From the IMG/VR virus record IMGVR_UViG_3300035389_000048, positions 1 through 39,823 of that record: 39,823 nucleotides of DNA, one strand, 5' to 3'. Both the position numbers and the translations under genes were made by a program. Shown piece by piece: positions 5,923-39,823 of the stretch. Under the pieces are notes generated by a model. It was not told the origin of the DNA, made no database searches, and worked only from the letters and a program-made list of their open reading frames with translations. The number at the start of each line of letters is the position of its first letter. Positions within the stretch are counted from its first letter, which is position 1. The stretch is from a virus (Duplodnaviria; Caudoviricetes).

Positions 5923-6337
5923 GTTTGTCATGCATGTTTGATAACTAGGTGGTGCAATCCCACTGCGTGTACTCGGAGCTACTGGAAAGATGTAGTTATA
6001 ATCGCTAGCCAAGAGCAAGTGCGTTACTGTGAAGCTACGTGTGAAGGAAGCTGGAGGCGAGGTCTTGAGCCAACGTACAGAAATTTGTTTAGGCTTAATA
6101 TATGGATAAGTTAGCTTAATTTGATAAAGTCCATTCTGAGAGTATATTGAGTAAAGCAAATGGCTACATGAGATTAAGAAGCTATCAAACTTAACATGAG
6201 AGGACTAATCGTATGTGTCTGAGAGTCTGCAATATCGACCAAAACTAAAGACAAGCCCATGAGGTATGCAAGATTAGTAGTCAGCCGAGGTCATAGTAGT
6301 AAGTTGGAATCTTACGAAGGACTGAACAATTTATGCT
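5923..6337 (+). mobile_element. Group II intron, class C, ribozyme domains I-III (5' part)
   Basis: Starts GTTTG 2 nt after the terminator T-run; IIC-like motifs GCATG.TTGATAACTAGG.GGTG, CTAGCCAAG.GCAAG, GAAGGAAGCTGGAGGC; DI closure GTTTGATA(5936-43)/TATCAAAC(6183-90); DII ACTAATC/GATTAGT; DIII AGTCAGCCGAGGTCATAGTAG...GAAGGACTGAAC; GC-rich island. Confidence 0.85.
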
Positions 6338-6352
6338 TTTCAAAGAATGAAA
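6338..6352. repeat. attL core TTTCAAAGAATGAAA
   Basis: 14/15 match to 39687-39701; dyad TTTCA/TGAAA; lies where intron similarity stops. Confidence 0.7.
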
Positions 6353-6655
6353 TCTGTAATGGTAACACTTATGAATAATTTACGGAATAAATTACATATA
6401 TTAGTATAATAAAAGTGCATTTACTATAGCAAATAAAGTGTAACAGACTATTACACAAAATATTACAATAACTTACATTATATTATATTAAAATTTTCTG
6501 AGTTTGAAGTTTAGATTTTAGGGTTTTGAATTTCCCTTCTAGGAAGAAATAAGTTCCTTTTTTATTAGCTAAAAAGTAAACTTATAGTAAAAGATAATTG
6601 AATAATCACTTGCTTATTGTAATAGTATTTTATCTTATTTGTCTACATTTTTACG

Positions 6656-6688
6656 AAAAAAAGAAACCAAGTTAATGATTCCTTTCTT
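6656..6688 (-). terminator. Terminator ending the late operon
   Basis: Minus strand AGGAATCA-TTAACT-TGGTTTCT followed by T-run. Confidence 0.55.
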
Positions 6689-6723
6689 AATATGAATTGA
6701 TAGTTGAAGTTTAGAGAAGGGTA

Positions 6724-7152
6724 TTAATCAATTAGTACAATTAATGATAAAACTGAGACTCCAATTAGTACTCCACCAAGAAGTATATTATTCCAGTTTC
6801 TCAAGTTCAGTAATTCTTTTTCTTTCTTCGTCAATGAGAGATTGGATTCTACTAATTGAGTTTCCAAGCTCTCGACTTGTGGAGTTAATGTCTCCACTGT
6901 CAGCTCTAAGTTCGCTAACCGTATCTCTTGTTTCTGAGATTGAGTTTGTAAGTTCAGCGTTTGACTGTCTAATAGATTCAACTTGCTGTTCTGTGTTTCC
7001 AACTGTATCTCTAAGTTGTTCCACGTTGTTTCCATCGTATTCATTTCCAGACTGAGATTGTTTAGGAAGTCTAATTCTGTTGAAGCCGATAAGGGCAACA
7101 ATACCAGACAAGAAAGCAGTAAGATACTTCCAATTCTTTTTAAACCATTCAT
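6724..7152 (-). CDS. Spanin-like coiled-coil protein (N-terminal signal/possible lipobox, C-terminal TM)
   Basis: MNGLKRIGSILLLSC..., heptad-rich middle, hydrophobic C-terminus; overlaps 6788-7162 out of frame. Confidence 0.5.
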   Translation of the reverse strand: MNGLKRIGSILLLSCLVLLPLSASTELDFLNNLSLEMNTMETTWNNLEIQLETQNSKLNLLDSQTLNLQTQSQKQEIRLANLELTVETLTPQVESLETQLVESNLSLTKKEKELLNLRNWNNILLGGVLIGVSVLSLIVLID

Positions 7153-7162
7153 TCATTATCAC
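6788..7162 (-). CDS. i-spanin-like protein (N-terminal TM + coiled coil)
   Basis: WKYLTAFLSGIVALIGF TM then coiled coil; follows holin-like gene with AAGGAG RBS. Confidence 0.55.
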   Translation of the reverse strand: MIMNEWFKKNWKYLTAFLSGIVALIGFNRIRLPKQSQSGNEYDGNNVEQLRDTVGNTEQQVESIRQSNAELTNSISETRDTVSELRADSGDINSTSRELGNSISRIQSLIDEERKRITELEKLE

Positions 7163-7350
7163 TCCTTTTTTTCCTTCATCTTTTTCAATCCAGAGTTGAA
7201 TCCAATACTTGCTATAAGAGGAATATACATTGTGGAGAATCCTTTTATAAATGCTATGAATCCAATCATGTTGAAAGTTGTAATAAAACTTCCTACAAGA
7301 CCAACTCCGAAAATTATTAATATCATTGCCAGTGTTATATTTTTTGCCAT
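7159..7350 (-). CDS. Putative holin (2 TM, basic C-terminus)
   Basis: 63 aa, two hydrophobic helices, KKMKEKKE tail, lysis-module position. Confidence 0.55.
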   Translation of the reverse strand: MAKNITLAMILIIFGVGLVGSFITTFNMIGFIAFIKGFSTMYIPLIASIGFNSGLKKMKEKKE

Positions 7351-7351
7351 T

Positions 7352-7732
7352 TTAACATCCTATTGTTTTTGAGATAAATTCCCAAACTAATTTCCCAGCT
7401 ACTACGATTACACAACTTCCAACCAATGAAAATTTTATCCAATTCGCAAACTTGTAGTATCCATCTTTCTTGTGGCTGACAAATTCATAAGCCACTATCT
7501 TTTCTACTTTTGTTGGTAGTTCCTTTTCAATGTTGTCAACTTTCTTATCAACAGCATCGAACTTCTCTTCTAACCCAGAAATTTTTTTGTGAAGGTCAGA
7601 AAAGCCTGTATTCATATTTTTATTTAAATCATCCATCTTCTCTTCTAACCTCTCCATCATTAAACTAAACCTCTCGTTTATCTTTTCTATTTCTTTTGCA
7701 TTTTCTACAATTTTTATATCATTTTCATTCAT
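7352..7732 (-). CDS. Coiled-coil protein with C-terminal TM (XhlA/holin-like)
   Basis: N-terminal coiled coil plus one C-terminal hydrophobic helix; late motif upstream. Confidence 0.5.
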   Translation of the reverse strand: MNENDIKIVENAKEIEKINERFSLMMERLEEKMDDLNKNMNTGFSDLHKKISGLEEKFDAVDKKVDNIEKELPTKVEKIVAYEFVSHKKDGYYKFANWIKFSLVGSCVIVVAGKLVWEFISKTIGC

Positions 7733-7754
7733 TCAAAATCTTCCTTTAGTCTTA

Positions 7755-7764
7755 TAACAAGTGT
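7755..7764 (-). promoter_or_regulatory. Late-promoter-like motif ACACTTGTTA, copy 1
   Basis: Ends 23 nt before start at 7732. Confidence 0.7.
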
Positions 7765-7780
7765 GTTAGAAGAGCTTTTT

Positions 7781-8101
7781 CTAAAGAGTTGTGAACAGTA
7801 ATTGGTTAGCTGAAACGAACGGAATTGTGGTTTTTGTTATAGTCCCATCTTCGTTTGTTATAGATGATACAGTTTCGCTAACTGAATAAGTATAACTTCT
7901 ATAAATTCCGTATTCCTCTGGAATACTTAAATTTTCTGTTTCGTTTACTACAGAAATTGTATAAACAGAATTAACATTTAATCCTATTGTTTTATAATTT
8001 TGTTCTTTAATTGCTAATGTTAATTCGTTTCCGTTTAACAAAACTCTACTTAGTTCTAAATTAAGAACTTCTTCTCCGTCCTTTTTTACTAATAAATACA
8101 T
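7781..8101 (-). CDS. Hypothetical tail-fibre-associated protein
   Basis: 106 aa ORF with GGAG RBS downstream of tail genes. Confidence 0.55.
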   Translation of the reverse strand: MYLLVKKDGEEVLNLELSRVLLNGNELTLAIKEQNYKTIGLNVNSVYTISVVNETENLSIPEEYGIYRSYTYSVSETVSSITNEDGTITKTTIPFVSANQLLFTTL

Positions 8102-8110
8102 TTTTTTCTC

Positions 8111-8632
8111 CTATAATGTTGTTATATAATGCTCGTTTAATTTTGTAGCACTTAATTCTGAACCATGAATTCTACTTCCAGTTGAACTATATTCAACTAG
8201 TTCATGTTGTGATATTGCACTCATTGGATATCCATAAACAGCAATATCCATATGTTCGCCACCAGCTTTGTTAATTTGCTGTATAGTGAATTTATACCAG
8301 CCCGAAGCTGGCAACAAACTTCCATCAAGATAATAGGTTATATAATCTTGATGCCCAGACCATTGTTTTGAAAATAATAATGTTCCAGTTGTTCCACTAG
8401 AATTACTTTGATATAATTTCACATAGTGATATGAACCAACTCCAAACCAGCCATCCAAAGCATGCATATACAATTTTGCTATATGCGTATTTGAACTGGC
8501 TGGTTTGTGCATGTATCTAACAATTGTTTCTGTATCATTTTCGTTATTACCTATGTATTGCGTATTACTTGCAACATAATTTTCACTATTTAATTTTGAT
8601 GCTGAGATTTCATCTCCTACATTCCATGCCAT
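8111..8632 (-). CDS. Putative receptor-binding/tail tip accessory protein
   Basis: N-terminal WNVGDEISASKLN resembles phage fibre attachment motifs; aromatic beta-rich core. Confidence 0.5.
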   Translation of the reverse strand: MAWNVGDEISASKLNSENYVASNTQYIGNNENDTETIVRYMHKPASSNTHIAKLYMHALDGWFGVGSYHYVKLYQSNSSGTTGTLLFSKQWSGHQDYITYYLDGSLLPASGWYKFTIQQINKAGGEHMDIAVYGYPMSAISQHELVEYSSTGSRIHGSELSATKLNEHYITTL

Positions 8633-8644
8633 TCCTTTTCTCCT

Positions 8645-11600
8645 TTAGCTTGCGTAAACCTTTCCATGAAACTGTCCACTAGTTCCAGTTGAATAAATAT
8701 CTGTTGCGTGAATTTCAACTGTATGAATTTCCGCAAACTTAGAAACTGCACTACCTATATTTGAAGTTGTTGCACCATTTGAAACGAATGGAAGCAATGT
8801 ATCACAAATGATACCTCTTTCTTCATCGAATACTTTAATTGTTCCATTATACAAACCCCAACTCATATTAGGTAAAAACTCTGTAGTTAAACTTGAGTTT
8901 GAAACTCCATCTACGTTAGTTGTAAACGCATTATCATTTTCATCAATGAATGTTAAAACATTTGCACTAGAAACGCTGATATACCTAAAATCTTTTACTA
9001 CTCCATATTCATAGAGAGTAGAATTATCGGTATCAATTTTAAAAAGAGTGTCTTTGTCTGTAACTGCTCCAACGAAACTATTCATGTTTGTGTATTTATT
9101 AACTACACTTACTCCACCAATACTTAATGATTTATTAGATACATTAGATATTGGAAAGTATTCTTTAATAGTTGCTGTTATTGTTCTGTGAGTTAAATCA
9201 TTTACAGTAGTTGTTACTGTATTTCCTGTAGTAAATAATACACTACCACCAGAAGTTGTTTGAACATTATCTGGAGTGATATAACAATAGCTTACTACTT
9301 CATAACTCTCTGTATGGTAAACTACTCCCCAATAGCCTTGCTGTATAATATATACTTCACCATTCATAGTTATAGTTTGAGGTGGAAAATAAGTTGGAAC
9401 AGCAACTTGCATTGTAGCTATGTCTGAACGATATCCACCAGTAATTTGTACTACATCATTAGCAGCAAAAGTTGCTGTATAAGTTTGTGTTGTTGGAGAA
9501 CCAGTAAATACAGTTGTTCCATTTTTTACAACAGTCTGCCAACCAAGTAATTCTACTCCTTCGTGCAAGTAGAAAGTTAGTTCCATTGCTGTAGGAATTG
9601 TTATAGTTAAATCAGTTACATTAGTATTACCACTTGCAACTGTTTCTATATTTTTATTTATTCCAGAGTTTGTTCCAGATTGTCCATCATAAACTATTGC
9701 TGAATGGTAATCAGTAAGTTGTTCATCAATGCTAAATCTTCTAGGAGAACTAGCTGAAATTGTATGAGAAGTTCCGTCTTGTCCTTTTTGAACCCAGAAT
9801 AGTTTATCGTTTTCATCACCAACTTCAATACGGATATTTTTTAAGATTGCTTCTCTTGCTTGTAGTAGTCCTGTTGAATCTAAACTAAATCCAGAACCAG
9901 TTCCAGTTCCAAAGTTTGCTGATTTAATAACTCCATCATCTCCATTAACTGTTATTGTCTTAGAAAATAAATTATCAACATCAATCTTAGAAGCTTTTAC
10001 ACTTCCTTCTAATAGAATTTCTTCAGCATCTAAAATTATCTTAGAAGCATCGTTAGCATCAGCTAGAACTTTAATACTAGCATCACTTGCAAGGTTTCCT
10101 TCTGAGTTTGTATAGCTAACTTTAAGCTTAATTCCAGCAGTGTTAGCTTCTATTGCAGAAGTATGACTTGTGATAATTCCATCAGCAGTATTTATTGCAA
10201 TAGTATTTAAGGAAATATTATCAGAGTTAATTTCTGCTACAGATTCTGAAGCACTAATAGATTCTCCATTAGCTGAAACAGAACTTACTACTGCTGTAAT
10301 ATCGTCAGCGTTTTGAGTTATTGCAGCAGCGTTTGTATTAGTTTTTCCGTCTACTGTGTTTAAAGCAGAAGTTGAAGCTTTTGAAGTAATAGCTGTTGCG
10401 TTCTGACTTATTGACGTTCCTTGTGAAGTATTAACTCCCTCTACACTTGAAATTCTTGATACAGCAGAAGTTATAGCACTTGAGTTAATTCCAATTGCTG
10501 AAGTATTAGAAGTGATATTTCCTGTAGCTGTATTTAAGCTAGTTTGACTAGCTTTCAAAGCAATGTTTGAAGCGTTTTGAGAGATTGAAGTAGCTTGTGA
10601 AGAAATATCACTTTCTGTTTCTGTAACTCTTGAAGCTAATGAAGTAATGCTTGAAGCGTTTTGAGTAATAGAAGTTGAATTAGTTTGTGATAGTTTAATA
10701 AACTTTCTAATTTTTATTGCTTCTGTATCACTATCTTGTAATGTATCTGGCTTCAATGATTTAAAAGTTTTAGCATCTGGAGCATTCCAACTATAAATTC
10801 CTGTTTCTCCAAGTAGTTCATTATCATAACAAATTTGAGGAGAAATTCCTGTATATTTTTCAGTAGTTAAACTTTGGTCGCTATATAAATGATAAACAGC
10901 TCCACCACCTCTAAGAAATACAGCAAAAGCCATATTACTCATGGTATTTACACAACCACCAAACATTTTTGAATACATTTCTTCAAGTTCATGAACTTCC
11001 CAACCATAGTTAGCTCCACCCCAACCACCAAAGTTAGCTTTAAGTTTTAAGGTTAAACCACCCTTATGAGTTGAAGTATACCAATCTGGTGGAGCTGTTT
11101 CATAATATAACCTAGTTACAAGGATATCTCTTTTTACACTTTGGTCTCCAGCCTTAATAACAACTGGATACATTTTATCACTATCACCATTTACAGTAAT
11201 ATTAACATGATATTTGTAACCATGATTATCTGATTTCGCATTTGATATTGAAGTATCAACTTCAATTTGGCTAACCTTAGAAGTAATGTCTGTAGCGTTT
11301 TGAGAAATTGAAGAAGTATTAGAAGTTATAGTTCCTTCAGTACTAGTTACTCTTGAAGCTACTGAAGTAATATCATCAGCGTTTTGAGTTATAGCAGTTT
11401 CATTAGTTGAAATATCCCCAGTAGCAGAGTTTAAATCTGTTTGACTAGCTTTCAATCCTATAGCCGTAGAATTAGCTGTGATAGAAGTTCCTTGTGAACT
11501 TACTGTTCCAGATAGAGTATTAACTTCTGTCTTAGTTGCTTTCAATTCAATATTATCAGCGTTCTGTGAAATAACTGTAGCTTGGGAAGTATTCACTCCT

Positions 11601-14107
11601 TCTGCATTAGTTAATCTTGTTGCTAGAGAAGTAATTCCTGATGCGTTTTGAGTTATCGAAGTTCCTTGTGAAGTATTCACTCCTTCTGCATTAGTTAATC
11701 TTGTTGCTAGAGAAGTAATTCCTGATGCGTTTTGAGTTATCGAAGTTCCTTGTGAAGTATTAACTCCTTCTACATTAGTTAATCTTGTTACTGCTGAAGT
11801 AATAGCAGTAGCGTTTTGAGTTATAGAAGTTCCATTGGAAGCAATATCTCCTGTAGCTTTATTCAAATCTGTTTGATTAGCTTTAGAAATAATTGCTGTA
11901 GCATTAACACCTATTGAAGAAGTGTTGCTTGAAACATTTCCGTTAGTAGAATTTAAATTAATTTGACTAGCTTTCAATCCAATAGCTGTAGCGTTTTGAG
12001 TTATAGAAGTATTTGCAGTTGAAATATCTCCTTCATTAGAACTTACTCTTGAAGCTACTGAAGTAATATCTGAAGCGTTCTGTGAAATAATAGTTCCATT
12101 AGAGCTTACTGTTCCAGAAAGAGTATTATAATCAGTTTGACTTACTTTAGAAGTAATTGCTGTAGCATTAACTCCAATAGCTGAAGTATTTGAAATAACG
12201 TTTCCGTTAGTAGAATTTAAACTAGTTTGATTAGCTTTCAAAGCAATGTCTGTTGCGTTCTGTGATATTGAAAGTCCTTGAGCTGTAGCTAAATTATTAA
12301 TATCATCAACATCAGAGTTCAATGAAGTTATAGCTGATTTTGCTTCAGTTATGGAATTATCTATTTCATCTTTTGCGTTATCAAGAGCTGTTTCTATATC
12401 AGTTTTATTTAAAGTTATTGTACTTGCTTGAGTTGAAAGTTCTGTATTTAAAGAAGTTACACTTCCTTCAAGTTCAGTTTTAACTGTTGCTAGACTAGTT
12501 TCTATTGATGTTTTATTAGAAGCAATAGAACTAGCTTGAGTTGAAAGTTCAGAAACTATTGATACAGTATCACTTTCAGTTTCAGATACTCTTGTAATTA
12601 TTCCAAGTAAATTATCTTCAATAGACCTTATACTTCCAGTTGTAGAGTCTACTTCTTCATTTAATTCATTTAGTTTGTTTGTTAATGTTTCAACTTCTGA
12701 GGTACTTGAAAATGAATCTGAGGGAACTGTTGAAGAAAATGTTGAAGTAACAAAAGTTAAATTACTAGCTGATGTTCCTGTATAACTATAAATAGGATTG
12801 TTTGCTGTTTTATCTTGTGTTTCAATAAATACAATTAGATTTATTCCAGTTGTTGTATCTGAAATTTGAATAAATTGTCCAACATTATACTTAAATTTTG
12901 AAGAGAAATTTAGCTTGTAGATTTGATTCTCTTGTTTTGATTTAATGATGTTAGCTAAATATTCAGCTTCTGCTTTTGAATCAATATAACTACCATCAAA
13001 TTCTTGAATGTTATCTCCAGAAATAGTATGAGTATATTCTTCAGAGAGCGTAACAATATCAGCCTTAATATCAAAGTTATATAAATGTTTTGATGTTAAG
13101 TCTGTTGCATTATTTTTAAAATATACTCTTGCTTTTAGTGATGTATCATAATTTTCATAAGATAAATTTACACCTTCTTCAGCTAAGAATATTACACGCT
13201 CATTTGATGTATCAATTAATTTTGTCTTTATATCTTGAACATTAGAAAGAGTTTGATAAGTTTCTTCATTGTTAGCATTAGCTGGGAAATAGTAACCATT
13301 TACAATTAATTCTTCATCTTCTGGTTCTGAGAACTGTCTGAAAACATATCTGTCAGATTTTACTGCTGTTTTCTTCCAAGTAACTGTTACACCATCTTCT
13401 TCTATTTCCTGTTTCTCTATTGTTAAAGGTTGTAAAAGTTGAGAGTCTGTAAGAGTGTAGGCTGGAACAATTGTTTCTGGGAACAAATTAACAAGTTTGA
13501 TTTCATTACCATTTTTAAAGTAATAAGATAAACCATATTGTTCGCATAAATCATCTAACATATCTGCATAAGTTTCATCAGTATCTATCTTGAAATATCC
13601 AATCTTAAAGTTTGGGTCTAAGATTGAAGTAAGTCTTAAATTTGATACATCAATTCCAGTAGCTGCTACAAGAGTTGTAATAATATCAACTTCATCACCA
13701 TCAACAGAGCCATTATATATCTTAACTGGGAAGTCATACAAAATTGATTTCGTAAGAGGTTTAGTTTCTAACTTATAGCTGTAATCTAAAACTTGAAAAC
13801 TGATTGGTTGAAGAGCTTCGTTAATGTTGTAAGAGATTGTATCTCTCATAATTCCAGTAAAATAATTAGTATCATTTACAGTTACTATTACTTGAATTTC
13901 ATAAGTTCTTTTGTTATTTAATAATGCTCTAAATAATACTTCATCTGGTTTAAGAGTTACATTCAAAGTTGATTGTTCATGTCCATCTATTCCAGTTGCT
14001 GTATGCTTAGTAAAACTTGTAGCTAATATGTTTTCATAATGAAAAGTATTTACTACATCATCACTAGTTTTATTCACAAAATTTATATCAATTTTATATT
14101 TATCCAT
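8645..14107 (-). CDS. Large tail tip/central fibre protein (1820 aa)
   Basis: Position after tape measure; hub-like N-terminus, long TSITQNA..I repeat shaft, GSVKASKIDV motif, beta-rich C-terminus. Confidence 0.85.
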   Translation of the reverse strand: MDKYKIDINFVNKTSDDVVNTFHYENILATSFTKHTATGIDGHEQSTLNVTLKPDEVLFRALLNNKRTYEIQVIVTVNDTNYFTGIMRDTISYNINEALQPISFQVLDYSYKLETKPLTKSILYDFPVKIYNGSVDGDEVDIITTLVAATGIDVSNLRLTSILDPNFKIGYFKIDTDETYADMLDDLCEQYGLSYYFKNGNEIKLVNLFPETIVPAYTLTDSQLLQPLTIEKQEIEEDGVTVTWKKTAVKSDRYVFRQFSEPEDEELIVNGYYFPANANNEETYQTLSNVQDIKTKLIDTSNERVIFLAEEGVNLSYENYDTSLKARVYFKNNATDLTSKHLYNFDIKADIVTLSEEYTHTISGDNIQEFDGSYIDSKAEAEYLANIIKSKQENQIYKLNFSSKFKYNVGQFIQISDTTTGINLIVFIETQDKTANNPIYSYTGTSASNLTFVTSTFSSTVPSDSFSSTSEVETLTNKLNELNEEVDSTTGSIRSIEDNLLGIITRVSETESDTVSIVSELSTQASSIASNKTSIETSLATVKTELEGSVTSLNTELSTQASTITLNKTDIETALDNAKDEIDNSITEAKSAITSLNSDVDDINNLATAQGLSISQNATDIALKANQTSLNSTNGNVISNTSAIGVNATAITSKVSQTDYNTLSGTVSSNGTIISQNASDITSVASRVSSNEGDISTANTSITQNATAIGLKASQINLNSTNGNVSSNTSSIGVNATAIISKANQTDLNKATGDIASNGTSITQNATAITSAVTRLTNVEGVNTSQGTSITQNASGITSLATRLTNAEGVNTSQGTSITQNASGITSLATRLTNAEGVNTSQATVISQNADNIELKATKTEVNTLSGTVSSQGTSITANSTAIGLKASQTDLNSATGDISTNETAITQNADDITSVASRVTSTEGTITSNTSSISQNATDITSKVSQIEVDTSISNAKSDNHGYKYHVNITVNGDSDKMYPVVIKAGDQSVKRDILVTRLYYETAPPDWYTSTHKGGLTLKLKANFGGWGGANYGWEVHELEEMYSKMFGGCVNTMSNMAFAVFLRGGGAVYHLYSDQSLTTEKYTGISPQICYDNELLGETGIYSWNAPDAKTFKSLKPDTLQDSDTEAIKIRKFIKLSQTNSTSITQNASSITSLASRVTETESDISSQATSISQNASNIALKASQTSLNTATGNITSNTSAIGINSSAITSAVSRISSVEGVNTSQGTSISQNATAITSKASTSALNTVDGKTNTNAAAITQNADDITAVVSSVSANGESISASESVAEINSDNISLNTIAINTADGIITSHTSAIEANTAGIKLKVSYTNSEGNLASDASIKVLADANDASKIILDAEEILLEGSVKASKIDVDNLFSKTITVNGDDGVIKSANFGTGTGSGFSLDSTGLLQAREAILKNIRIEVGDENDKLFWVQKGQDGTSHTISASSPRRFSIDEQLTDYHSAIVYDGQSGTNSGINKNIETVASGNTNVTDLTITIPTAMELTFYLHEGVELLGWQTVVKNGTTVFTGSPTTQTYTATFAANDVVQITGGYRSDIATMQVAVPTYFPPQTITMNGEVYIIQQGYWGVVYHTESYEVVSYCYITPDNVQTTSGGSVLFTTGNTVTTTVNDLTHRTITATIKEYFPISNVSNKSLSIGGVSVVNKYTNMNSFVGAVTDKDTLFKIDTDNSTLYEYGVVKDFRYISVSSANVLTFIDENDNAFTTNVDGVSNSSLTTEFLPNMSWGLYNGTIKVFDEERGIICDTLLPFVSNGATTSNIGSAVSKFAEIHTVEIHATDIYSTGTSGQFHGKVYAS
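11586..11837. repeat. Three 84-bp (28-aa) tandem repeats in fibre shaft
   Basis: TSITQNASGITSLATRLTNAEGVNTSQG units starting at 11586, 11670 and 11754. Confidence 0.85.
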
Positions 14108-14123
14108 TTATTCTTTTTCCTTT

Positions 14124-14180: not shown

Positions 14181-14205
14181 TAAGATTATTTAATAAAATA
14201 ATCAA

Positions 14206-14424: not shown

Positions 14425-14534
14425 AATGAAACCTCTCTTCTTTAATAAATATTTACTTATTTTACCATTGTTGTGAGTGAGAATCTACTAAAATTAGTTA
14501 GTTTCCAGTATATAATAAAAAACATTTATTTAAA

Positions 14535-31982: not shown

Positions 31983-32002
31983 AGATTAAAAAAATAACCA
32001 AC

Positions 32003-32036
32003 AAAAAGCACACCCTCTTGGATGTGCTAACTTTTT
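32003..32036. terminator. Terminator between convergent units
   Basis: AAAAAGCACA-CC..GG-ATGTGCT...TTTTT. Confidence 0.55.
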
Positions 32037-32110
32037 ACTTACCTTTTGTTCTATCTTTTAGTTTATCTATTAGAGTTTCTAAGTGAACATCCGTATTAAC
32101 GTTTTTACTT

Positions 32111-32707
32111 TTAATATTCTACCTCCTCTCTTAAAATGTCTTCCATTAACTCAAAGCATTCACAGAAACAATCTTTGGTTTTCCTTTTATTAATCTTGTA
32201 TAAATACTTCTTGTAATATTTACCACACTCTAAGCAATCTATAATGTAACCAACTAATTGTTCTTCCTCTTCTTCATCAAGTTCATTGTCTGTAATGTAA
32301 TTATCTATGATTTGATAGATACATTCAAAAGTATTTTCTGTTTCAACTCTATCTAAGACTTTATCCTCTATTGAATACTTAATAGAATTTACTGGCTTGA
32401 ATACCAACCCTTTTGGGTTTAAATATTCTTCATCAGATAGTAATTTTGTATATTTCTTCTTCGGTTTCTGTGAGTAATACAATGCTTGTTTTAAATAACC
32501 AGAAGGATATTTAATTAGTGTTGGATTTTCTTCTGACATTAATCTCATAATATAACTACTAACAATATCTTCTAAATCTTCTAACTCTCCATAACCATTT
32601 TTCTTAATAGAATACTTTCCTAAGTTCATTAAGTTTGTATATAATTCAGAAAGTATTTTTTCATCTCTTGTCTTTAAGTATTCTTCTTGTAATCGTTTTA
32701 TCTTAAT
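32111..32707 (-). CDS. Sigma-factor-like protein, probable ATT start
   Basis: Frame extends 26 codons upstream of annotated ATG to ATT after GGAAGGA; RLQEEYLKTRDEKILSELY...EDLEDIVS..IMRL...SGYL resembles sigma70 regions 1.2/2. Confidence 0.55.
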   Translation of the reverse strand: MKIKRLQEEYLKTRDEKILSELYTNLMNLGKYSIKKNGYGELEDLEDIVSSYIMRLMSEENPTLIKYPSGYLKQALYYSQKPKKKYTKLLSDEEYLNPKGLVFKPVNSIKYSIEDKVLDRVETENTFECIYQIIDNYITDNELDEEEEEQLVGYIIDCLECGKYYKKYLYKINKRKTKDCFCECFELMEDILREEVEY

Positions 32708-32719
32708 GTTGTTCCTTCC

Positions 32720-32917
32720 TTAAAGAATTATTATTAAAGCCATTAAACCAATAATAATTATGGGTGTAAAAATTACTATATTAATTGCTACATTAGTAAT
32801 TTTTCTCATTTCTTTTTCAGTTAGTGAATTGTATTCTTCACTTTGTATTTTCCCATCTTTTGCAAGATTAGTTTCTTCTAAAATTTCTGTTATTGCTCTT
32901 TCTCTTCTTTTTGTCAT
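32720..32917 (-). CDS. Small protein with C-terminal TM
   Basis: 65 aa, AAGGAG RBS. Confidence 0.6.
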   Translation of the reverse strand: MTKRRERAITEILEETNLAKDGKIQSEEYNSLTEKEMRKITNVAINIVIFTPIIIIGLMALIIIL

Positions 32918-32930
32918 ATTTTATTTCTCC

Positions 32931-33086
32931 TTATATATTTCTATTAAAACTCTCTAATATATCTTTGTAATAACCTTCTTCTGTAAAAGGTTCTGCTTTT
33001 ATTGGTGGCTGAGATTTTATTTTCTCAGCTTCCAATTCCATTCCAAGTTTGTTTAATTGTCTTTGTGATTCAGTTGTATTAATCAT
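32931..33086 (-). CDS. 51-aa hypothetical protein (not in ORF track)
   Basis: MINTTESQRQLNKLGMELEAEKIK...; fills gap exactly between neighbours. Confidence 0.55.
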   Translation of the reverse strand: MINTTESQRQLNKLGMELEAEKIKSQPPIKAEPFTEEGYYKDILESFNRNI

Positions 33087-33087
33087 C

Positions 33088-33717
33088 TTATTTGTAGTTC
33101 CTTTCACTTAGTTCTAAGTCTGCGAACTTGAATAAAAATCCACCAGCAGAGAATTGTTTTCCAAGAGCTGCCTGAGATACATTCTGTTTTGTTAATGAGT
33201 TTGCTCTTGCTGCTTCGCTTACTGAACAGTAAGTGTCTAATAGGATTCCGTTCTTATTAAACTTTTGAATTTCTCTACAACTTTTGATTTGTTTGTGAGT
33301 TTTAACTAATCTCTTATACCTTTTAGGTGATAGAGTTTTTCCTGTTCTATTAATTGAAATTTTCTTTTTAATTTCATCTGGAAGAACTCTGAATCTATTA
33401 GTTGTAACTCCTGTTGAACTTGAATAAGTTGCTCTGTTGTATCCGTTCTTTGGGTTTGTAGAATCTTGAGTTGAAATTAGAAATGATTCATATAATTTTG
33501 CTTGTTCTTCTGATAAGTTTTCTTTTAGAACTTCCTTCTTAAAATTATCCCAACCAAATTTAGTTATTGAATTATAGAAATGTTTGTTGTAAAAATATCC
33601 TTTTCCATTGTTCCATCTTTGTTCTGGATTTTTCTTTGTTATACCTATGTAAACTTTTCCATTTGTATTGTTAGTAATTTGATAAACCTTGTGATTGTTT
33701 TCTATTGTTTGTTCCAT
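33088..33717 (-). CDS. GIY-YIG homing-type endonuclease with NUMOD-like DNA-binding domains
   Basis: VYQITN..NGKVYIG, catalytic-type R and E, GYN; C-terminal YCSVSEAAR...FSAGGFLF. Confidence 0.88.
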   Translation of the reverse strand: MEQTIENNHKVYQITNNTNGKVYIGITKKNPEQRWNNGKGYFYNKHFYNSITKFGWDNFKKEVLKENLSEEQAKLYESFLISTQDSTNPKNGYNRATYSSSTGVTTNRFRVLPDEIKKKISINRTGKTLSPKRYKRLVKTHKQIKSCREIQKFNKNGILLDTYCSVSEAARANSLTKQNVSQAALGKQFSAGGFLFKFADLELSERNYK

Positions 33718-33922
33718 TATATTTTTCCATCCTTTTTAATTGCTTTTTAAGAAGTAAGAAGAAGAAGAAAGTCTATTAACTTTGTTAAAAAGGAGGAATA
33801 AATAAATCTTTCCTTCTCTTTGCTTACTATAATTAACTTGCTTTTTTTTTGATGAAACGAACGATTTTTGAACAAAAACAGAAAAAACTTTTCTGAGTTG
33901 TAATGTTTGTTTTTTTCTCTAC

Positions 33923-33932
33923 TAACAAGTGT
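33923..33932 (-). promoter_or_regulatory. Late motif copy 7
   Basis: ACACTTGTTA about 200 nt upstream of the GIY-YIG/sigma-like operon. Confidence 0.55.
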
Positions 33933-34224
33933 TTTACTATCTATATAAGACTTAACTTTGTTGTAGATGGAAAACTTTAATAATGAGTTTTAAGATAAAA
34001 AAAGCTCCAAGAAAATGGAGTTGAAAGTTTGTAAAAAAGCTTTGAAAATGGCTAATAGAAGCTGTTCAGAACGTTTTCTTTTTGAAGTCGAATAAGTTTA
34101 CCTTTTAGAAATTGAAGAAGTTTAAAGAGGTTTTTGAAGATTGTTTTAGTTTGTGGAATTGATTCTCTTAATTCTTTCCGAAGGAAACCTAAGATTGTAC
34201 TCAATCTTATTTGGAAGAATAGAA

Positions 34225-34645
34225 TAGTGAGCGAAGCGAGTTATTCGTATTCGACAAAGAGTGAGCGAAGCGAACGAATGAATACCAATATTTCAACTTG
34301 GTTCTTTAATGGAATTTCTTACAGTAATGGTTTAAATAAAATTTAGACATAGTTATAGCTTAAAAATATTAGAGAAAAAGGACAATTAATTAATTCCTTA
34401 AAATCGAATATTTAATAATTCAATTCAAAGTAATTATCTATAATATAAAATACTTTAATAAGATAAAACAATTTAATGAGAATCATTTATTTAATAAATT
34501 CAATTATATTTTGTTCCTTACGAAATCTTTTTCGTTTCACTCAAAAGAATTTCTAGAACAAAATCACTCGTTTCACTCGTGAGTTTCGCTTCGCTGTTAA
34601 GAGAAGACTCTTAATTGTTCTTATTGTTCTTATTGTTCTTAATAA
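34225..34645. other. Candidate replication origin
   Basis: GCGAAGC x2 on +, GTGAAAC x2 and GCGAAGC on -, flanking AT-rich core; three ATTGTTCTT tandem repeats. Confidence 0.5.
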
Positions 34646-35009
34646 CATTTTGTAATGACTTTAAGTTCATTCAATTCTTCATTTCACTACATTCATTAAT
34701 GCAAATTTTTGTGCTAATTCGGATACATTTTTTGCAAATTTTTATTTAAATAAAAAAAAGCTCAAAAATCATTACAATCTTTGAGCCATTCTAAATTTGG
34801 AGGAAATTTACAAGAGAAAAATTAAACACTACTTTTCCTTTTCTCTATACCTATAATGCTATGGTATGAGTTAAACGATGCACATTCTAAAAACCTTTTT
34901 CATTTATTTTTTCAAATTTCATTTTCTCAAGTCTTAAATAGATTATAGAAAATAAAAAAATGAACTTATTTCTGTTTGCTTGCAAAGATAAGTACATATG
35001 GAGAGAAAA

Positions 35010-35900
35010 ATGAAAACAAATACTACAATTACAATGAATGATAAATTAAAAAAAGCATTAAAGGAAAAAAGCTATACAACTTTTTATTACTTGGTAGATA
35101 AAACGGAGAGTTCTGTTATTAAAGCACATGATGAAATTTATGCTAATGGAAAGTATGAAGAAAAAGATGATATTAAAAGCAAAGTAAATCTTATTATCTG
35201 GTCTAAAATTTGTGGAGAAACTTTTGATAAAAATGATAAGATAGTTAAATGTAATAGATTCTATTCTTATGAGAACATAGAAGGCTTTGTAAAAATAACA
35301 ACATTAACTATTCTAAAGGAAGCAAGAGATAGAGCTTTCAGAAGAAAGAGTGATGGAATTGAAAAACTTGATAATGTAGAATGTTTAAGTTTAGATTTTA
35401 CTTCATCCGAAAAAAGATTATCTATTGAGGTTGAAAAAGAATATTTAGAAAAAGCTTTAAAGGAAACTGAAGGAGAAGTTAATTCTTCTAAGAAAGTTCT
35501 TCCTATTAGAGCATATGATAAAATCACCTACAAAGTTATTGGAGAATATAAAAATGCTTCACAAGCTGCAAGAGAACTTGGTCTTACAAATTCACAAGTT
35601 TCTGCTGTATTGAAACAAACAAAGAAAAGTGCAAAAGGAAATGTATTCTTATATGTAGTTCCTTCCAACCTTCAAAATGAGTTTGAAGAAAAAGAACTTG
35701 AATACAAGAGAAACAATAAGAAAGAATTTAAAGTTGTTATAAGAGCTTTTAGTAATAAAACTGGTAAACTATTAAAAGAATTTAATACTGTTTCTGAAGC
35801 TTCAACTGAATTAAAATGTGATAGATATAGAATAGCAAAAGCTCTAAAAGGTTCAATCAAAAGTACTGTTGGCTTTAAATTTGAATATTATTCAGTTTAA
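35010..35900 (+). CDS. Putative regulator: sigma-region-2-like N-terminus + two NUMOD1 HTH domains
   Basis: KDDIKSKVNLIIWSK...EGFVKI; EYKNASQAARELG and EFNTVSEASTELK repeats; GGAG RBS before 35010. Confidence 0.55.
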   Translation: MKTNTTITMNDKLKKALKEKSYTTFYYLVDKTESSVIKAHDEIYANGKYEEKDDIKSKVNLIIWSKICGETFDKNDKIVKCNRFYSYENIEGFVKITTLTILKEARDRAFRRKSDGIEKLDNVECLSLDFTSSEKRLSIEVEKEYLEKALKETEGEVNSSKKVLPIRAYDKITYKVIGEYKNASQAARELGLTNSQVSAVLKQTKKSAKGNVFLYVVPSNLQNEFEEKELEYKRNNKKEFKVVIRAFSNKTGKLLKEFNTVSEASTELKCDRYRIAKALKGSIKSTVGFKFEYYSV

Positions 35901-35939
35901 AAATTTTTCTGATTCATGAGAAGAAGACTATTTTTTGTA

Positions 35940-35988
35940 TTGACAAAATGTCAAGTTTTACTTGACATTGCAATATTAATGCTATAAT
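35940..35988 (+). promoter_or_regulatory. Consensus-like sigma70 promoter overlapped by palindromes
   Basis: TTGACA(35962-67)-15-TATAAT(35983-88) with TG extension; AATGTCAAGT-TTT-ACTTGACATT dyad. Confidence 0.6.
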
Positions 35989-36081
35989 GTTAACCATATT
36001 AATAGATAAAAACTCCATCAGCTTTCTAGTAAAAGCTAAACGGAGAAAGTAATAAATTACTTTTTTACGTTGCCTTTGCAA

Positions 36082-36222
36082 TTACAGTATTAATAATAAA
36101 ATATCTACGCCAATAGATAGTTCTTTTATCATAACTGGGTCTTGTTTAGGTAAGACGATTAAGGATAAGTACATACTAATCCTAACAACTACTAACAGAT
36201 TTTTAATGTTATTTTTTAACAT
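36082..36222 (-). CDS. 46-aa hydrophobic peptide (not in ORF track)
   Basis: MLKNNIKNLLVVVRISMYLSLIVLPKQDPVMIKELSIGVDILLLIL; AAAGGA RBS. Confidence 0.4.
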   Translation of the reverse strand: MLKNNIKNLLVVVRISMYLSLIVLPKQDPVMIKELSIGVDILLLIL

Positions 36223-36606
36223 TTTTATCCTTTTCTTTGCAATATTAACAACTCAAGTTATTTCCTCGAACAACTCGAGCAAAAGGTTATTGCAACAATT
36301 TAAATTTGTGGAACTTCCTTCTTTTCTGTAGCTCCTTTGTAATAAACTTGTCCATACTTTAACTCCTTAAATAGAACTTTCTTAATACTTGTTTTTATAA
36401 AATGTATTAATTCCTCTAATTTTTTTCAGTATACCAATAAAAAAGATATAGTGCAAGTGGTAGGTTTTCAAAAACAAACTACGCTATATGTAGTGCAGTG
36501 TAGTACAATGATGTAAAACAACCCTTAAACCCATATAACTTCTATATAAGTTATATTTCCTTACTTATGTGTTTCTATATATGATAGTTATTAAATTAAA
36601 TTCATG

Positions 36607-36647
36607 AAAAAGACCAATCTTTAATTAAAGATTGGTCTTTTTTTTTA
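36607..36647. terminator. Bidirectional terminator
   Basis: AAAAAGACCAATCTTTAATTAAAGATTGGTCTTTTT perfect palindrome. Confidence 0.85.
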
Positions 36648-36817
36648 ATTCTTATTCTTATATCCTAATTTTTAGTAGGAATATCAACTAAATTCCTAGC
36701 AAACTCTGTATTAACATATCTAGTGAAAATGTCATTATTGAGTTTTTGTATTCTATTATTATTAACTTCATTTACAAGAAATGGTAGTCTTTTTTATTTA
36801 TATACAAAATGCTAATT

Positions 36818-37648
36818 CTAAATAATAACTGTTATCACAATAGATATGATTGCTACTCCAACTGTAATAATTGTACCTATTCTACTTTGAGCTTTAATTT
36901 CTTTTATACTTTTGTCTGTTTCTTTATTACTATGGGATTTAATTTCTTTAATACTTTTATCAGTTTCATCTTTCATTGGTTTTATAATATTATTATATAC
37001 ATGAATATAATTATCATTAATTATTTCTATAGAATCTATGTTTTTAGTTAATTCAGTTAACTGGTCTACATATCCACTTAAACATCTATCTTCTTTTGCA
37101 ATTTCCAAAAAATCTTGGACATGTTCCTTTGTCTTTTTTATTTGCTTGCCATTTTTTTCTGGACTAAAACCAAGTACTTCTTCTTTTTCTTCTTGTGCTT
37201 TTTTTCTTTCATATTCAGCTTTTTTTATGCATTCTTCAGCCTCGGTTAATTTATACTTACAACTAACTAATTTTTCTTTCGCTTGTTGAAATTCCCCTTC
37301 TGTCTCAATTAATTTGTTTGAAATCCTTTTCCATTCATATTCAGATTTGCTAATTATATCCATAAAAAAACTTCGATATCTATCAATATCAATTGTTCCA
37401 TTACACCCAATAAAAATATTTTTTTCACTTAATTTTGGACGAATCAAAATATATTTAAGTATTTCTTTTTTAGTTAAAAAATCCAAGTAAATATTAATAC
37501 TGCCTTGGAATTTAATTCCATATTTATTTTCCCAAATCTCTCTGTGGCGACTGTGGATTGTAAAGTCAGTTTTATCATTATTGATTCTTGTATTAAGAAA
37601 AACAAGAAAATTTAATAAATTATTATCTGAAAAAAAACTAAATGCCAT
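36818..37648 (-). CDS. Coiled-coil protein with C-terminal TM anchor (moron)
   Basis: 276 aa; AGGAG RBS; ETDKSIKEIK twice; hydrophobic C-terminus. Confidence 0.7.
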   Translation of the reverse strand: MAFSFFSDNNLLNFLVFLNTRINNDKTDFTIHSRHREIWENKYGIKFQGSINIYLDFLTKKEILKYILIRPKLSEKNIFIGCNGTIDIDRYRSFFMDIISKSEYEWKRISNKLIETEGEFQQAKEKLVSCKYKLTEAEECIKKAEYERKKAQEEKEEVLGFSPEKNGKQIKKTKEHVQDFLEIAKEDRCLSGYVDQLTELTKNIDSIEIINDNYIHVYNNIIKPMKDETDKSIKEIKSHSNKETDKSIKEIKAQSRIGTIITVGVAIISIVITVII

Positions 37649-37715
37649 ATAAAAACTCCTAATTATGTTATTAATTTTTATAATAACACTAACAAATTCA
37701 ATTTACAATGTAAGT

Positions 37716-39539
37716 CTAAATATTTAATAGGCTTGAATGGTCTAATAAATTTGCAACATATTCAACATCAGTATAACTATGAAAAAGATATTTAGATAAT
37801 TCTTGAATTTTAGTTTCAGTAATTTCATTTTCAAGAATATGATTAAGGAGAACTCCTTCATACTCTTCTTTTAAATACAATTCTCCTTCAGCTCTTTCAG
37901 TCTTATTTGATAAGTAATCACAGTTATCATAAAAATCTTTGTACTCACTTGGTTTACCAGTGAGATTTTTTATTGCCATAATATTAACAAGAGCATTCTT
38001 AGATAGAATTAATAGTTCTTGAAACACAATTTCATTAACTCTTCTTAGATTTGTTCTTAACTGGTTCTCTAAAATATCTATCTTAGCTATAGTCTCTGGA
38101 GAATTATTTTTGTTATAGTAAGAAGGATTTTCTGGTAAATCTTTTGAGACTAATTTAATTAAACTTTTACCATAAATCTTTTCTACAGCTACCATAAAAT
38201 TTGCTTTTTCAACTTCTTCCTTAGAGGGTTTCCAAGTTGGTGTTTTGTTAGCTTTTTTTTGAAGTTTAACTTCATTAATTACATCAGTTACATAAATTTT
38301 TTGAATAGAGTTTGCTACCTTTGTTAATTCGTTAACTCCATAACCAGTATAATGTCCTTCTTGAACTGCTGTTAAAGTATTTGTAGCTTCACTCCAACCA
38401 CAAAATAAACGTATAAAACTTTCTTTAAGTTCAGCTCCAGAATATATCAATAGATTTGTATTAAGGCTTTTCCTTAAACCATGAGGAGAAACCTTATATT
38501 CCTTAGTATTAATTTTAATATCAAAAGCTTCTAATATTTCGTCTTTAAATCTTGTCCAAGAAGCTGAATAGTTACCATGTATTGAAAGACCTTTTCTGTT
38601 TTTAAAAACGAAATCTGAAGAACTTTTACCTTCAATATTGTCTATAATCATTTCATAAATTTCATCACAAAGAACAATATCTCTAGCTTTTCCATTTTTT
38701 GGAAGACCAATAATTTTACCAGCAGTATCTTTAAAAGCTCTATTAATATGAACTATACGGTCTTCAATTTGCCCAACCGTTAGAGCTGTAATCTCACTTT
38801 TTCTCATTCCTGTATAAGCTGCAAACTTAAAAGCTTTAAAATAATCTGACTCTAAAAAGTTATCCCATTTCTTTTGAGTTGTGTTTACAGGTTCAATCTT
38901 TTCTAAGAGGTTTAAGTTAAAGAGATAATAAACTTGATAAGGTGAAAATACATATTTTAACTTATCTGTAACATTAAACATCTCAATTTGTGAACTTGTA
39001 AAAGGATTGAACTTGATATATTTATCATTCTTAATTAGATAAGAATAAACAGAAGATAGTGAATAGATAATTGTATTTCTAATATTATTAGTCATTTCAT
39101 AAGTTAGAAGTCGTTCTTTGAACTTTCTTATATCATCTTTGGATATATTAAAATATAAAACTTCTCCAAGAGAATCATTTAGTTCCATAAATATTTTATT
39201 TAAATATCTTATTTTTAAAGATGACGCTCTAAGTTGAAAAGAGTGTTGAGAAAGACCAGATTTAAAATCATTATAGAGTGGATTCTTAGTGTTACTAAAC
39301 CAATTGTTATTGATTAAATATTGTTTCAAGGATAAGTGTCTAATTGAAGCTTCAGCAACTTTTACTTTAATTGGTATCTTAGAAATTATCTCTCTAGCTT
39401 TAATGTCTGCTTCTTTCTTGTTTGTTTGTTCAGTATTGATATAAGACAATTTTCCATTGTCATAAAATCTAACATAATAAGTTTTGGAAATCCAACCAGT
39501 AGATTTGTTCTCTCTCTTTAATATTTTATATTTAATCAT
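37716..39539 (-). CDS. int: Tyrosine integrase with long C-terminal extension
   Basis: YTGMRKSE, PKNGK, HGLRKS, CGWS, GHY; start MIKYK after GAGG (ORF open from 39572). Confidence 0.9.
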   Translation of the reverse strand: MIKYKILKRENKSTGWISKTYYVRFYDNGKLSYINTEQTNKKEADIKAREIISKIPIKVKVAEASIRHLSLKQYLINNNWFSNTKNPLYNDFKSGLSQHSFQLRASSLKIRYLNKIFMELNDSLGEVLYFNISKDDIRKFKERLLTYEMTNNIRNTIIYSLSSVYSYLIKNDKYIKFNPFTSSQIEMFNVTDKLKYVFSPYQVYYLFNLNLLEKIEPVNTTQKKWDNFLESDYFKAFKFAAYTGMRKSEITALTVGQIEDRIVHINRAFKDTAGKIIGLPKNGKARDIVLCDEIYEMIIDNIEGKSSSDFVFKNRKGLSIHGNYSASWTRFKDEILEAFDIKINTKEYKVSPHGLRKSLNTNLLIYSGAELKESFIRLFCGWSEATNTLTAVQEGHYTGYGVNELTKVANSIQKIYVTDVINEVKLQKKANKTPTWKPSKEEVEKANFMVAVEKIYGKSLIKLVSKDLPENPSYYNKNNSPETIAKIDILENQLRTNLRRVNEIVFQELLILSKNALVNIMAIKNLTGKPSEYKDFYDNCDYLSNKTERAEGELYLKEEYEGVLLNHILENEITETKIQELSKYLFHSYTDVEYVANLLDHSSLLNI

Positions 39540-39686
39540 CAGTTTAAACCTCAATAATTTGTAATGTATCATATTGAAAAGAATTTGTAAATGTATAATA
39601 TGTTACAAAAACATTACACAGAAAAAAAATATAAATAATAAATACTTACTATAAAACAATTTAATTTATTAAAATAAAAATACTTG

Positions 39687-39701
39687 TTTCAAAGATTGAA
39701 A
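39687..39701. repeat. attR core TTTCAAAGATTGAAA
   Basis: 14/15 match to 6338-6352; about 150 nt upstream of integrase. Confidence 0.7.
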
Positions 39702-39823
39702 AGTCGATTCTACAAGATGTGAAAAGAAATAGGAATAAAGATTATGTTAAGTCCAAATCTGATGTTCTATGGCGGGTATCTACATTGGTGTAGAAAAGGA
39801 ATAAAAACGTGAGGAAAGAAAAT
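39702..39823 (+). mobile_element. Probable continuation of the group II intron (domain IV start with RBS)
   Basis: Nested stems TTCTACA(39708-14)/TGTAGAA(39789-95) and AGATT/AATCT; window ends GAGGA-AAGAAA-AT. Confidence 0.45.

Follow-up and report, generated by a model that had tools for sequence, protein, structure and literature searches.

A class C group II intron split by a tyrosine-integrase prophage in DNA of a likely Sphaerochaetaceae host

The window analysed here is the whole 39,823-nucleotide stretch of a Caudoviricetes virus record (IMGVR_UViG_3300035389_000048). Its plus strand opens with a host flank (1..5238) in which Pfam comparison delineates a fragment that we take to be radical-SAM-like, Sir2, a 248-aa minus-strand ORF, an AraC response regulator and a histidine kinase. 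At the DNA level, this flank is 81-86% identical to genome G147 and 71-79% identical to G001, G139, G141 and G137 (the family of the Sphaerochaetaceae MAG), and the host of the prophage-bearing DNA is likely a Sphaerochaetaceae bacterium. Further downstream, a terminator-like hairpin with a T run (5886..5919, plus strand; 15-bp stem, predicted fold of -19.8 kcal/mol), which is absent from the list produced by a strict terminator scan, forms the 5' exon of a group II intron and ends 3 nt upstream of it. Domains I-III of the intron (5923..6322, plus strand) are matched by two Rfam group II models, RF02001 (6023-6186, 102 bits) and RF01998 (6252-6322, 48 bits), and Rfam detected no further RNA family in the window. 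There follow the 5' strand of the domain IV basal stem (6327..6335, plus strand), recognized by cofolding both strands in the intact copies L003 and L004, where the partner strand lies immediately 5' of domain V, and the attL core TTTC-AAAGAAT-GAAA (6338..6352, plus strand), at which the intron breaks off. The prophage body (6353..39686, minus strand), defined by PHROGs, Pfam and comparison with the prophage G166, extends to the attR core TTTC-AAAGATT-GAAA (39687..39701, plus strand). Beyond it, the intron resumes with the remainder of the 5' part of domain IV (39702..39808, plus strand; assigned from the fold of the intact copies), including an RBS-like AAGGA at 39796-39800, and with the first five codons, MRKEN, of the intron RT/maturase (39809..39823, plus strand), which begin with a GTG at 39809, match the N-terminus of the L003 and L004 RTs and are cut off by the window end. 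A sequence-only reading of this DNA had already described intron domains I-III from 5923 onward behind a terminator, a core recurring some 33.3 kb away beside the integrase and an RBS at the window edge, all of which is borne out.

Comparison with uninterrupted copies confirmed that a single class C group II intron is divided between 5923-6352 and 39687-39823. The intact intron L004 matches 5916-6352 at 407 of 437 positions (93%) and 39687-39823 at 123 of 137 (90%), and the two aligned pieces overlap by the core alone and join without the loss of a base. The join is seamless in all five near-family copies with sequence flanking the core (L003, L004, L019, L141 and L185), and one contig of run X4 likewise shows the uninterrupted intron. 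As the earlier reading expected, the intact copies continue into the sequence of 39702-39823 and run on past the core into the RT, domain V and domain VI. The anticipated downstream RT is present in these copies (463 aa in L003 and L004; TIGR04416 scores of 375-377 bits, cut-off 300) but its catalytic motif is FADD, not YADD. Domain V, which lies beyond the window, contains in L003 and L004 the CGC triad, a short distal stem and an extra 2-nt bulge in the basal stem; Rfam at its cut-off gave no match to domain V or VI in the intact copies. An AGGAA motif is found in domain I near 6046-6050, within the RF02001 match, and the ribozyme of L004 measures about 478 nt once the loop of domain IV is left out. 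A survey of intron 5' ends was given nine sources, two of which (L189 and L143) did not match the anchor, and a hairpin precedes the intron at all seven ends located. Insertion directly behind a terminator-like hairpin, the domain V triad, AGGAA, the short ribozyme and the RT in domain IV jointly argue for the assignment to class C, and the many different 5' flanks point to past mobility of the intron family. A further candidate for an interrupted intron, G073:C23, was rejected: its match stops near the core, but it is a different intron. That lysogeny separates domains I-III from the RT and domains V and VI, as previously proposed, follows directly from the junctions.

It is most improbable that these junctions arose in assembly, by the joining of a free phage contig to intron repeats via the shared 15-mer. 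In favour of such an artefact, the intron is a deep repeat, and a second virus record contains an identical prophage with a different left flank, a type I-F cas operon in place of the two-component system of the window, so that the path through the 5' half of the intron, at least, is uncertain; the differing flank reflects either the invasion of a second intron copy or mis-assembly of the repeat. However, 15 bp that include a mismatch fall short of the word lengths that assemblers usually employ, the two records agree on both junctions, which also appear as graph branches in three runs (X1-X3; at 6352/6353 for attL), and the halves are correctly ordered and fit without loss, with the core next to the integrase. 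In these runs, the depth of the unitigs with the intact junction exceeds that of the attR contigs by a factor of 6-11 (74.6/7.6, 112/9.8 and 71.8/12.2), in line with many empty intron copies. The run contigs contain 15 intron bases before attL and 25 after attR, below the 31-base bridging rule, and almost no coverage of the left flank of the window was seen in X1-X3, which is uninformative since the records are filtered. No attP junction was detected in the contigs of four runs, contigs being apt to drop rare forms. Searches of viral contigs by integrase, alignment, terminase and intron patterns returned the sister record only; none of 396 candidates in metagenome contigs was confirmed as a relative of the phage or the integrase, INPHARED contained no match, and 9 of 258 genomes of the order and 2 of 401 of the class had only kin of about 30% identity. 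These searches recovered no flanks for the integrase relatives P0001 and P0003-5, so the evidence is that of one phage, which counts against the intron as its cognate target. None of the 58 CRISPR spacers of the sister record matches the window (the best has 9 mismatches).

The prophage, a 33,349-bp element of the siphophage type between the two 15-bp cores, encodes HK97-like head proteins, a head-tail adaptor, a tail tube, a tape measure, an 1820-aa tail protein, an HNH protein and a terminase, with DUF285 repeat proteins and AbiTii as cargo. The head, tail and packaging genes are intact, and the late genes are collinear with those of G166, the nearest prophage, whose integrase is 31% identical and adjoins tRNA-Arg; this comparison would fit a swapped integrase-attP module. 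The primase-helicase and the initiator of G166 have no counterpart in the window prophage, which is therefore probably cryptic. PHROGs and Pfam recognized no repressor, replication initiator, helicase or endolysin in it (unrecognized genes are possible), no excisionase was recognized, and the ORF-poor segments 33860-35000 and 35900-36820 contain no replication-protein pseudogene; near the prophage ends, a look for arm-type sites showed only short AT-rich repeats. The intact-looking tyrosine integrase (37716..39572, minus strand; 618 aa as called, relatives starting at residue 12) consists of arm-binding, core-binding and catalytic domains followed by about 190 helical C-terminal residues, and its R257, H364, R367, W393 and Y408 are invariant, as are K281 and K292, the candidates for the catalytic lysine of the R-K-H-R-W-Y set. 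In a fold search, the top hit was Tn1549 Int (E 1.2e-6), with lambda Int close behind (8.7e-6), so the fold is not indicative of mismatch tolerance. In a quick tree, the integrase grouped with P0001 (77% identity) and P0003-5 (45-52%) with an SH-aLRT support of 100, apart from tRNA-adjacent kin; sister integrases adjoin tRNAs in 7 of 13 loci.

The two cores differ at a single base, A at 6347 and T at 39696, which is position 6 of the spacer, so that the spacers are not identical, a situation resembling mismatch-tolerant or secondary-site integration. They are the only two sites in the window with at most one mismatch to the core, and about 8e-5 such matches would be expected in the 250 bp next to the integrase. 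Inverted repeats, CTTTTC/GAAAAG in the intron and TTTC/GAAA on the phage side, surround the 7-bp spacer, a plan of the lambda and ICEBs1 type. The nearest intact copies (L003, L004, L019 and runs X1-X4) have A at the variable base, so that their stem is 7 bp long and the loop 5 nt, and attL thus retains the intron allele. The perfect 8-bp hairpin that the sequence-only reading obtained by rejoining the flanks exists as the T form in more distant copies from G137 (L141 and L185) but not in the nearest ones, and the attR core is identical to this natural G137 allele (15/15). The stem CTTTTCAAA..TGAAAAGTC is unchanged in all six aligned introns, with RTs down to 60% identity, and variation in their hairpins is confined to three loop bases; because the near family shows no compensatory change in the stem, its RNA pairing is unproven. 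In more distant introns, a hairpin of another sequence is seen at about the same place in most of the 15 folded copies, as judged by eye.

The reading that we prefer, with a probability of roughly 0.6, is that site-specific recombination by the integrase placed the prophage in the first hairpin of domain IV, which would be the cognate, multicopy attB of the enzyme. The phage spacer was likely AAAGATT and that of the invaded intron AAAGAAT; exchange across the one mismatch, followed by replication, would leave the intron allele at attL and the phage allele at attR. A requirement of the intron RNA for the hairpin is the likely reason why the palindrome is retained; for other integrases, tRNA loops supply the symmetry. 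Insertion would be cheap for the host because class C introns lie behind terminators outside genes and the other copies are intact. The split copy would be immobile until excision because domains I-III are separated from the RT and domains V and VI. The proposal that excision restores the intron is weakened by the spacer mismatch and by the lack of recognizable replication genes, and the earlier interpretation as a whole is partly supported.

An alternative that we consider rather unlikely is that the intron served as an opportunistic secondary site, the normal attB being elsewhere. The hairpin would have been used as a multicopy and almost perfect imitation of that site, and the prophage, held in place by the mismatch, would later have shed its replication genes. 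A candidate for the normal site is codons 344-348 of a gene that we take to be iron-alcohol-dehydrogenase-like, if the site is not absent from the relatives altogether. This gene shares 14 contiguous phage-side bases, spacer included, in G147, G139 and G141, and 13 in G137, but the right-hand arm of the palindrome is broken, the score is at chance level (E 0.27-0.34), the site is altered in G142 and could not be located in the broken copy of the gene in G001, and crossover would create a stop codon immediately behind the spacer, while the phage side supplies nothing to replace the lost sequence. More generally, differing attL and attR spacers, as seen here, are described for ICEBs1 as the signature of secondary sites, where excision is lowered (PMC3715440, excerpted text); however, the ICEBs1 secondary sites given there have 2-12 mismatches in 17, compared with 1 in 15 in the present case and none against the G137 allele, and IntDOT, as described in part of its literature, tolerates spacer mismatches at normal sites (PMC2817482). 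The missing replication genes and the tRNA-adjacent sister integrases would also suit a secondary site, whereas in five related genomes neither phage arm finds a longer match beyond AT-rich noise. A tRNA as the hidden primary target was rejected: among 30 distinct tRNA sequences (21 isotypes; Ser, Cys, Tyr, Trp, Gln and Asp were absent from the set), the best core match was 10/15, and the 11 sites of G001 with at most one mismatch all lie outside its 76 tRNA genes.

Counts of core-like sites bear on whether domain IV is a preferred target. A 21-nt pattern occurs six times in 258 genomes of the family, every time upstream of an intron RT, which speaks for such a preference; none of these six introns is interrupted, which counts against it. 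So does the abundance of near-core sites in the five related genomes, which are AT-rich: 11, 18, 8, 17 and 15 sites with at most one mismatch, compared with 6, 6, 4, 2 and 12 for a reversed control, that is, 8-18 per genome from which a secondary site could be drawn. In G137, the exact core matches outside the intron fall in coding genes. A 16-nt core scan of viral contigs returned at least 120 stretches, the sister record among them, as chance would be expected to produce with a short AT-rich word.

Far less probable than a secondary site is the possibility that the split intron still functions, either by trans-splicing of a 5' half transcribed by terminator read-through with a 3' half promoted from the phage end, or with excision as a mobility switch. 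Natural trans-splicing introns are mostly broken in domain IV (PMC4424553, in part), trans-splicing in L. lactis has been obtained with Ll.LtrB severed in domain IV (PMC1874635, in part), and the break here falls immediately within the basal stem of domain IV, the two strands of which are predicted to pair. Three promoter-like plus-strand sites lie upstream of attR, but promoter-like sites are about as numerous as chance predicts (7 against an expected 3.9 +- 2.2). Moreover, the first hairpin of domain IV is lost at the break, several alleles of the split copy are absent from the deep contigs, which fits drift, and splicing would bring the host no gain because the intron is outside genes.

Going beyond insertion at a cognate hairpin, we put forward tentatively, as possible but doubtful, a scenario in which a tyrosine-integrase lineage moved from tRNA genes to the conserved first domain IV hairpin of class C introns. 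The spreading retroelement would seed attachment sites, the same phage would sit in two intron copies (next to the two-component system and the type I-F cas operon), and the split would fall where natural trans-splicing introns break. Even as it stands, the locus clearly shows a phage exploiting a retroelement: the attachment site does the host no harm, exists in many copies and can move, and one genetic parasite would offer landing places to another. If the integrase does prefer this target, the spread of the intron would determine how many prophage sites exist and where, prophages would in turn restrain intron mobility, and the reading of structured-RNA-gene symmetry by integrases would extend from tRNAs to ribozyme hairpins. 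The integrase is also a candidate for mismatch tolerance with a short, readable site. In addition, the locus offers a natural bacterial domain IV split; a 2015 review, as far as its excerpted text goes, knew of no bacterial trans-splicing intron (PMC4424553). Our literature search found no published case of this kind, and integration-site tables (TIGER) may list intron targets.

Among the systems with which this locus can be compared, as portrayed in excerpts of the respective sources, class C introns such as B.h.I1 (PMC1702495, PMC4424553) share the terminator insertion, CGC triad, AGGAA, short ribozyme and domain IV RT, but the present intron differs from the B.h.I1 type in its GTTTG 5' end, the FADD motif, the additional 2-nt bulge in the domain V basal stem and the prophage split. 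The attB of ICEBs1 in trnS-leu2 (PMC3715440) has 5-bp inverted repeats around a 7-bp spacer, and mismatch there likewise results in differing attL and attR, although that target is a tRNA gene, whereas here a phage occupies a hairpin of a retroelement. IntDOT and the integrases of the Tn1549/Tn916 type (PMC2817482) are tyrosine integrases that also accept spacer mismatches but act on conjugative elements. The prophage-like phiRv1 of M. tuberculosis, with its attB in the repeated host sequence REP13E12, resembles the present case in the choice of a repeat but uses a serine recombinase, and the repeat is neither a ribozyme nor a known retroelement (PMC9317374, a review). Further systems are the helper-embedded PICIs, in prophage late genes, and the PICI EcCIDi14, in an IS110 transposase gene (PMC10111431): in these, as here, the integrase targets a mobile element and brings no replacement sequence, which means a target broken until excision, but they are satellites in protein genes, whereas in the present case a prophage of full size occupies the RNA portion of an intron. 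Twintrons and prophage-borne introns, as partially covered sources present them, are nested group II elements too, but there the intron is the invader.

The record of 39,823 bases, a virus record, opens with host genes recognized by Pfam (1-5238), whose best DNA matches are to genomes from the family of a Sphaerochaetaceae MAG (81-86% in G147 and 71-79% in G001, G137, G139 and G141). A terminator-like hairpin predicted by folding (5886-5919) stands directly before a group II intron, whose domains I-III (6023-6186 and 6252-6322) are the only RNA family that an Rfam search detected in the window. Beyond these domains lies a siphoprophage (6353-39686) whose head genes are HK97-like and which also carries tail genes and a tyrosine integrase (37716-39572). 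Two copies of a 15-bp core bound it (6338-6352 on the left, attL, and 39687-39701 on the right, attR); they differ at a single base, A at 6347 versus T at 39696, and nowhere else does the window match this core within one base.

That this prophage resides inside the intron is a solid observation. A pattern scan of genome contigs yielded two stretches, both of them intact introns, and the prediction of the sequence-only reading that intact copies would join the two halves was borne out: L004, an intact copy from a related genome, matches the left half at 93% and the last 137 bases of the window at 90%, with the core as the only overlap, and in L004 and a second copy, L003, there follow a 463-aa reverse transcriptase (RT; FADD; TIGR04416), the first five codons of which are the last 15 bases of the window, and then DV and DVI. 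The copies L019, L141 and L185 are likewise continuous, so that the core is uninterrupted in all five near-family copies with sequence on both sides. The contig graphs of three sequencing runs (X1-X3) branch both at 6352/6353 and at the attR core. The intact-junction unitig has 6-11 times the depth of the phage contig, a measure that does not give copy number; these runs share year and habitat, may represent one campaign and may include the source sample, and their phage contigs extend less than 31 bases into the intron. The L003 intron makes up an entire 1.9-kb contig binned with a Bacteriovoracaceae MAG, reflecting either a mis-binned repeat or spread across phyla, and in L019 (1290-2450) the 5' part of the intron is replaced by another element which, from its terminal sequence and ORF, we take to be IS3-like.

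Judging from its sequence, the intron matches class IIC in its DV, AGGAA motif, ribozyme size and preceding hairpin: a CGC triad, a short distal DV stem, the AGGAA motif and a ribozyme of ~478 nt are present, a hairpin lies upstream of all seven intron 5' ends found, and these features fit the description of class IIC given by Toor et al. (PMC1702495). In this family, the basal stem of DV also contains an additional bulge of 2 nt (L004 2400-2475; L003 130-205, minus strand), neither of these DVs giving a DV/DVI match in Rfam at the cut-off, and its GTTTG 5' end and FADD motif are off-consensus too. Folding puts the start of the domain IV basal stem at 6327, with its partner strand just ahead of DV; the core is the element that directly follows the 5' strand of this stem, a hairpin whose stem (CTTTTCA/TGAAAAG in intact copies) is unchanged in six of six aligned introns, variation being confined to three loop bases. 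Of 258 family genomes, three contain the 21-nt pattern, with six occurrences in total, none of them interrupted and all lying before an intron RT, and most of 15 more distant introns have, in folds inspected by eye, a hairpin of different sequence near the same position. The high-affinity maturase site of a IIC intron is D4a (PMC10190682), to which either this small hairpin or the longer stem behind it may correspond, and introns split in domain IV are known to trans-splice (PMC1874635; PMC4424553).

The site comprises a 7-bp spacer flanked by short inverted repeats, the same plan as in attB of ICEBs1 (PMC3715440). Because the variable spacer base is A in all near intact copies (L003, L004, L019 and runs X1-X4) and T in both copies from G137, attL carries the intron allele and attR most likely the phage allele; exchange across one spacer mismatch followed by replication would produce this arrangement, an outcome drawn likewise for ICEBs1 (PMC3715440), although a later point mutation or invasion of an intron copy that already carried T would give the same picture. 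The T form obtained in the sequence-only reading by rejoining the halves is thus a natural allele, being that of the G137 copies, but probably not the one that the phage met. The integrase retains R257, H364, R367, W393 and Y408 in all seven aligned sequences, and its structural model (mean pLDDT 72) matches the Tn1549 and lambda integrases about equally.

We consider it likely, on the basis of one phage, that the integrase is dedicated to the intron, the insertion working like site-specific integration at a structured-RNA palindrome in a mobile, multicopy target. The phage-side core agrees with the G137 allele at 15 of 15 positions, with both arms matching, compared with 10 of 15 for the best tRNA; no long match to either phage arm was found in five related genomes; and the integrase belongs to a clade separate from its tRNA-adjacent kin (a tRNA adjoins 7 of 13 kin loci, and a group II match was found at none of 12). 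The nearest prophage relative (G166:C2 459700-487377; L252, L253), beside tRNA-Pro/tRNA-Arg, has collinear late genes, a portal 51% identical and a primase-helicase, together with a different, only 31% identical integrase that adjoins tRNA-Arg; the far end of this prophage lies off the contig. Alternatively, the hairpin could be a secondary site of an integrase whose normal attB is elsewhere, which we consider less likely. The spacer mismatch between attL and attR is a mark of secondary sites, near-core sites (at most one mismatch) number 8-18 per genome, and no second element of the integrase clade could be placed. In G147, G139 and G141, a dehydrogenase-like gene and the phage side have 14 contiguous bases in common, but this match is at chance level, its right arm is broken, and crossover there would give an immediate stop. 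In a separate locus, L008 (G220:C22), a tRNA-Arg-like 5' half ending at the anticodon loop precedes a 607-aa integrase of the wider family and likely represents an anticodon-loop att site.

The same prophage is present in a second IMG/VR record, G003, which in the stretches compared has 100% identity to the window over 27719-39818 and 15653-37350 and one difference over 5925-11335. There, the 5' half of the intron differs from that in the window at 2 of 430 bases and sits behind cas6f of a complete type I-F CRISPR-Cas locus (L018 953-12902; cas1, cas2/3, csy1-3, cas6f; 59 repeats), the likely host of which is a member of Sphaerochaetaceae; this left flank matches four of the five related genomes at 68-71% and is also found as a loose end in X2. 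Two lysogenised intron copies, recombination between intron copies and a wrong assembly path through the 430-base repeat would each account for the difference in flanks; we put the chance of the first at about one in three. The L018 intron copy, behind the cas6f terminator, begins with GG rather than GT, and none of the 58 spacers of this locus matches the window.

The structural genes and the integrase are unbroken, but genes for a repressor, an excisionase, replication and an endolysin went unrecognized in the prophage. It has nothing that corresponds to two genes of G166, a primase-helicase (phrog_19) and a weak initiator (phrog_270); where this relative carries replication genes, there is ~2.2 kb of ORF-poor, AT-rich DNA (33720-34997 and 35901-36817), within which short repeats occur (34222-34274 and 34609-34646). 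The contigs of runs X1-X4 show no attP junction, although contigs drop rare forms. The prophage is probably cryptic, so that restoration of the intron by excision is possible in principle only. Sphaerochaeta are not known to have normal peptidoglycan synthesis, which makes the lack of a recognized endolysin noteworthy. In the lysis position (6724-7732), there are small membrane and coiled-coil ORFs, two of which overlap in different frames and are presumably spanin-like. Upstream of late gene blocks (14123, 17690, 22190, 25192), the motif TTTTCTAAGTAACAAGTGT recurs on the plus strand, probably as a late promoter or leader; weak indications suggest that 32111-32629 and 34998-35900 may encode sigma-like activators. 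Plus-strand cargo (28443-31982) encodes an AbiTii-domain protein, a membrane protein and a pair of DUF285 repeat proteins whose genes contain 72-nt repeats.

In the accessible literature, which leaves most subscription papers out of reach, we found no case of a prophage inside a group II intron; the word 'intron' is absent from the main text and one supplement of the ProBord survey of 430,134 proviruses (PMC13626063) and from the main text of PMC12884075. The nearest published parallels are phiRv1, which according to a review lies in REP13E12 (PMC9317374), and satellites that reside within genes of prophages or IS (PMC10111431).
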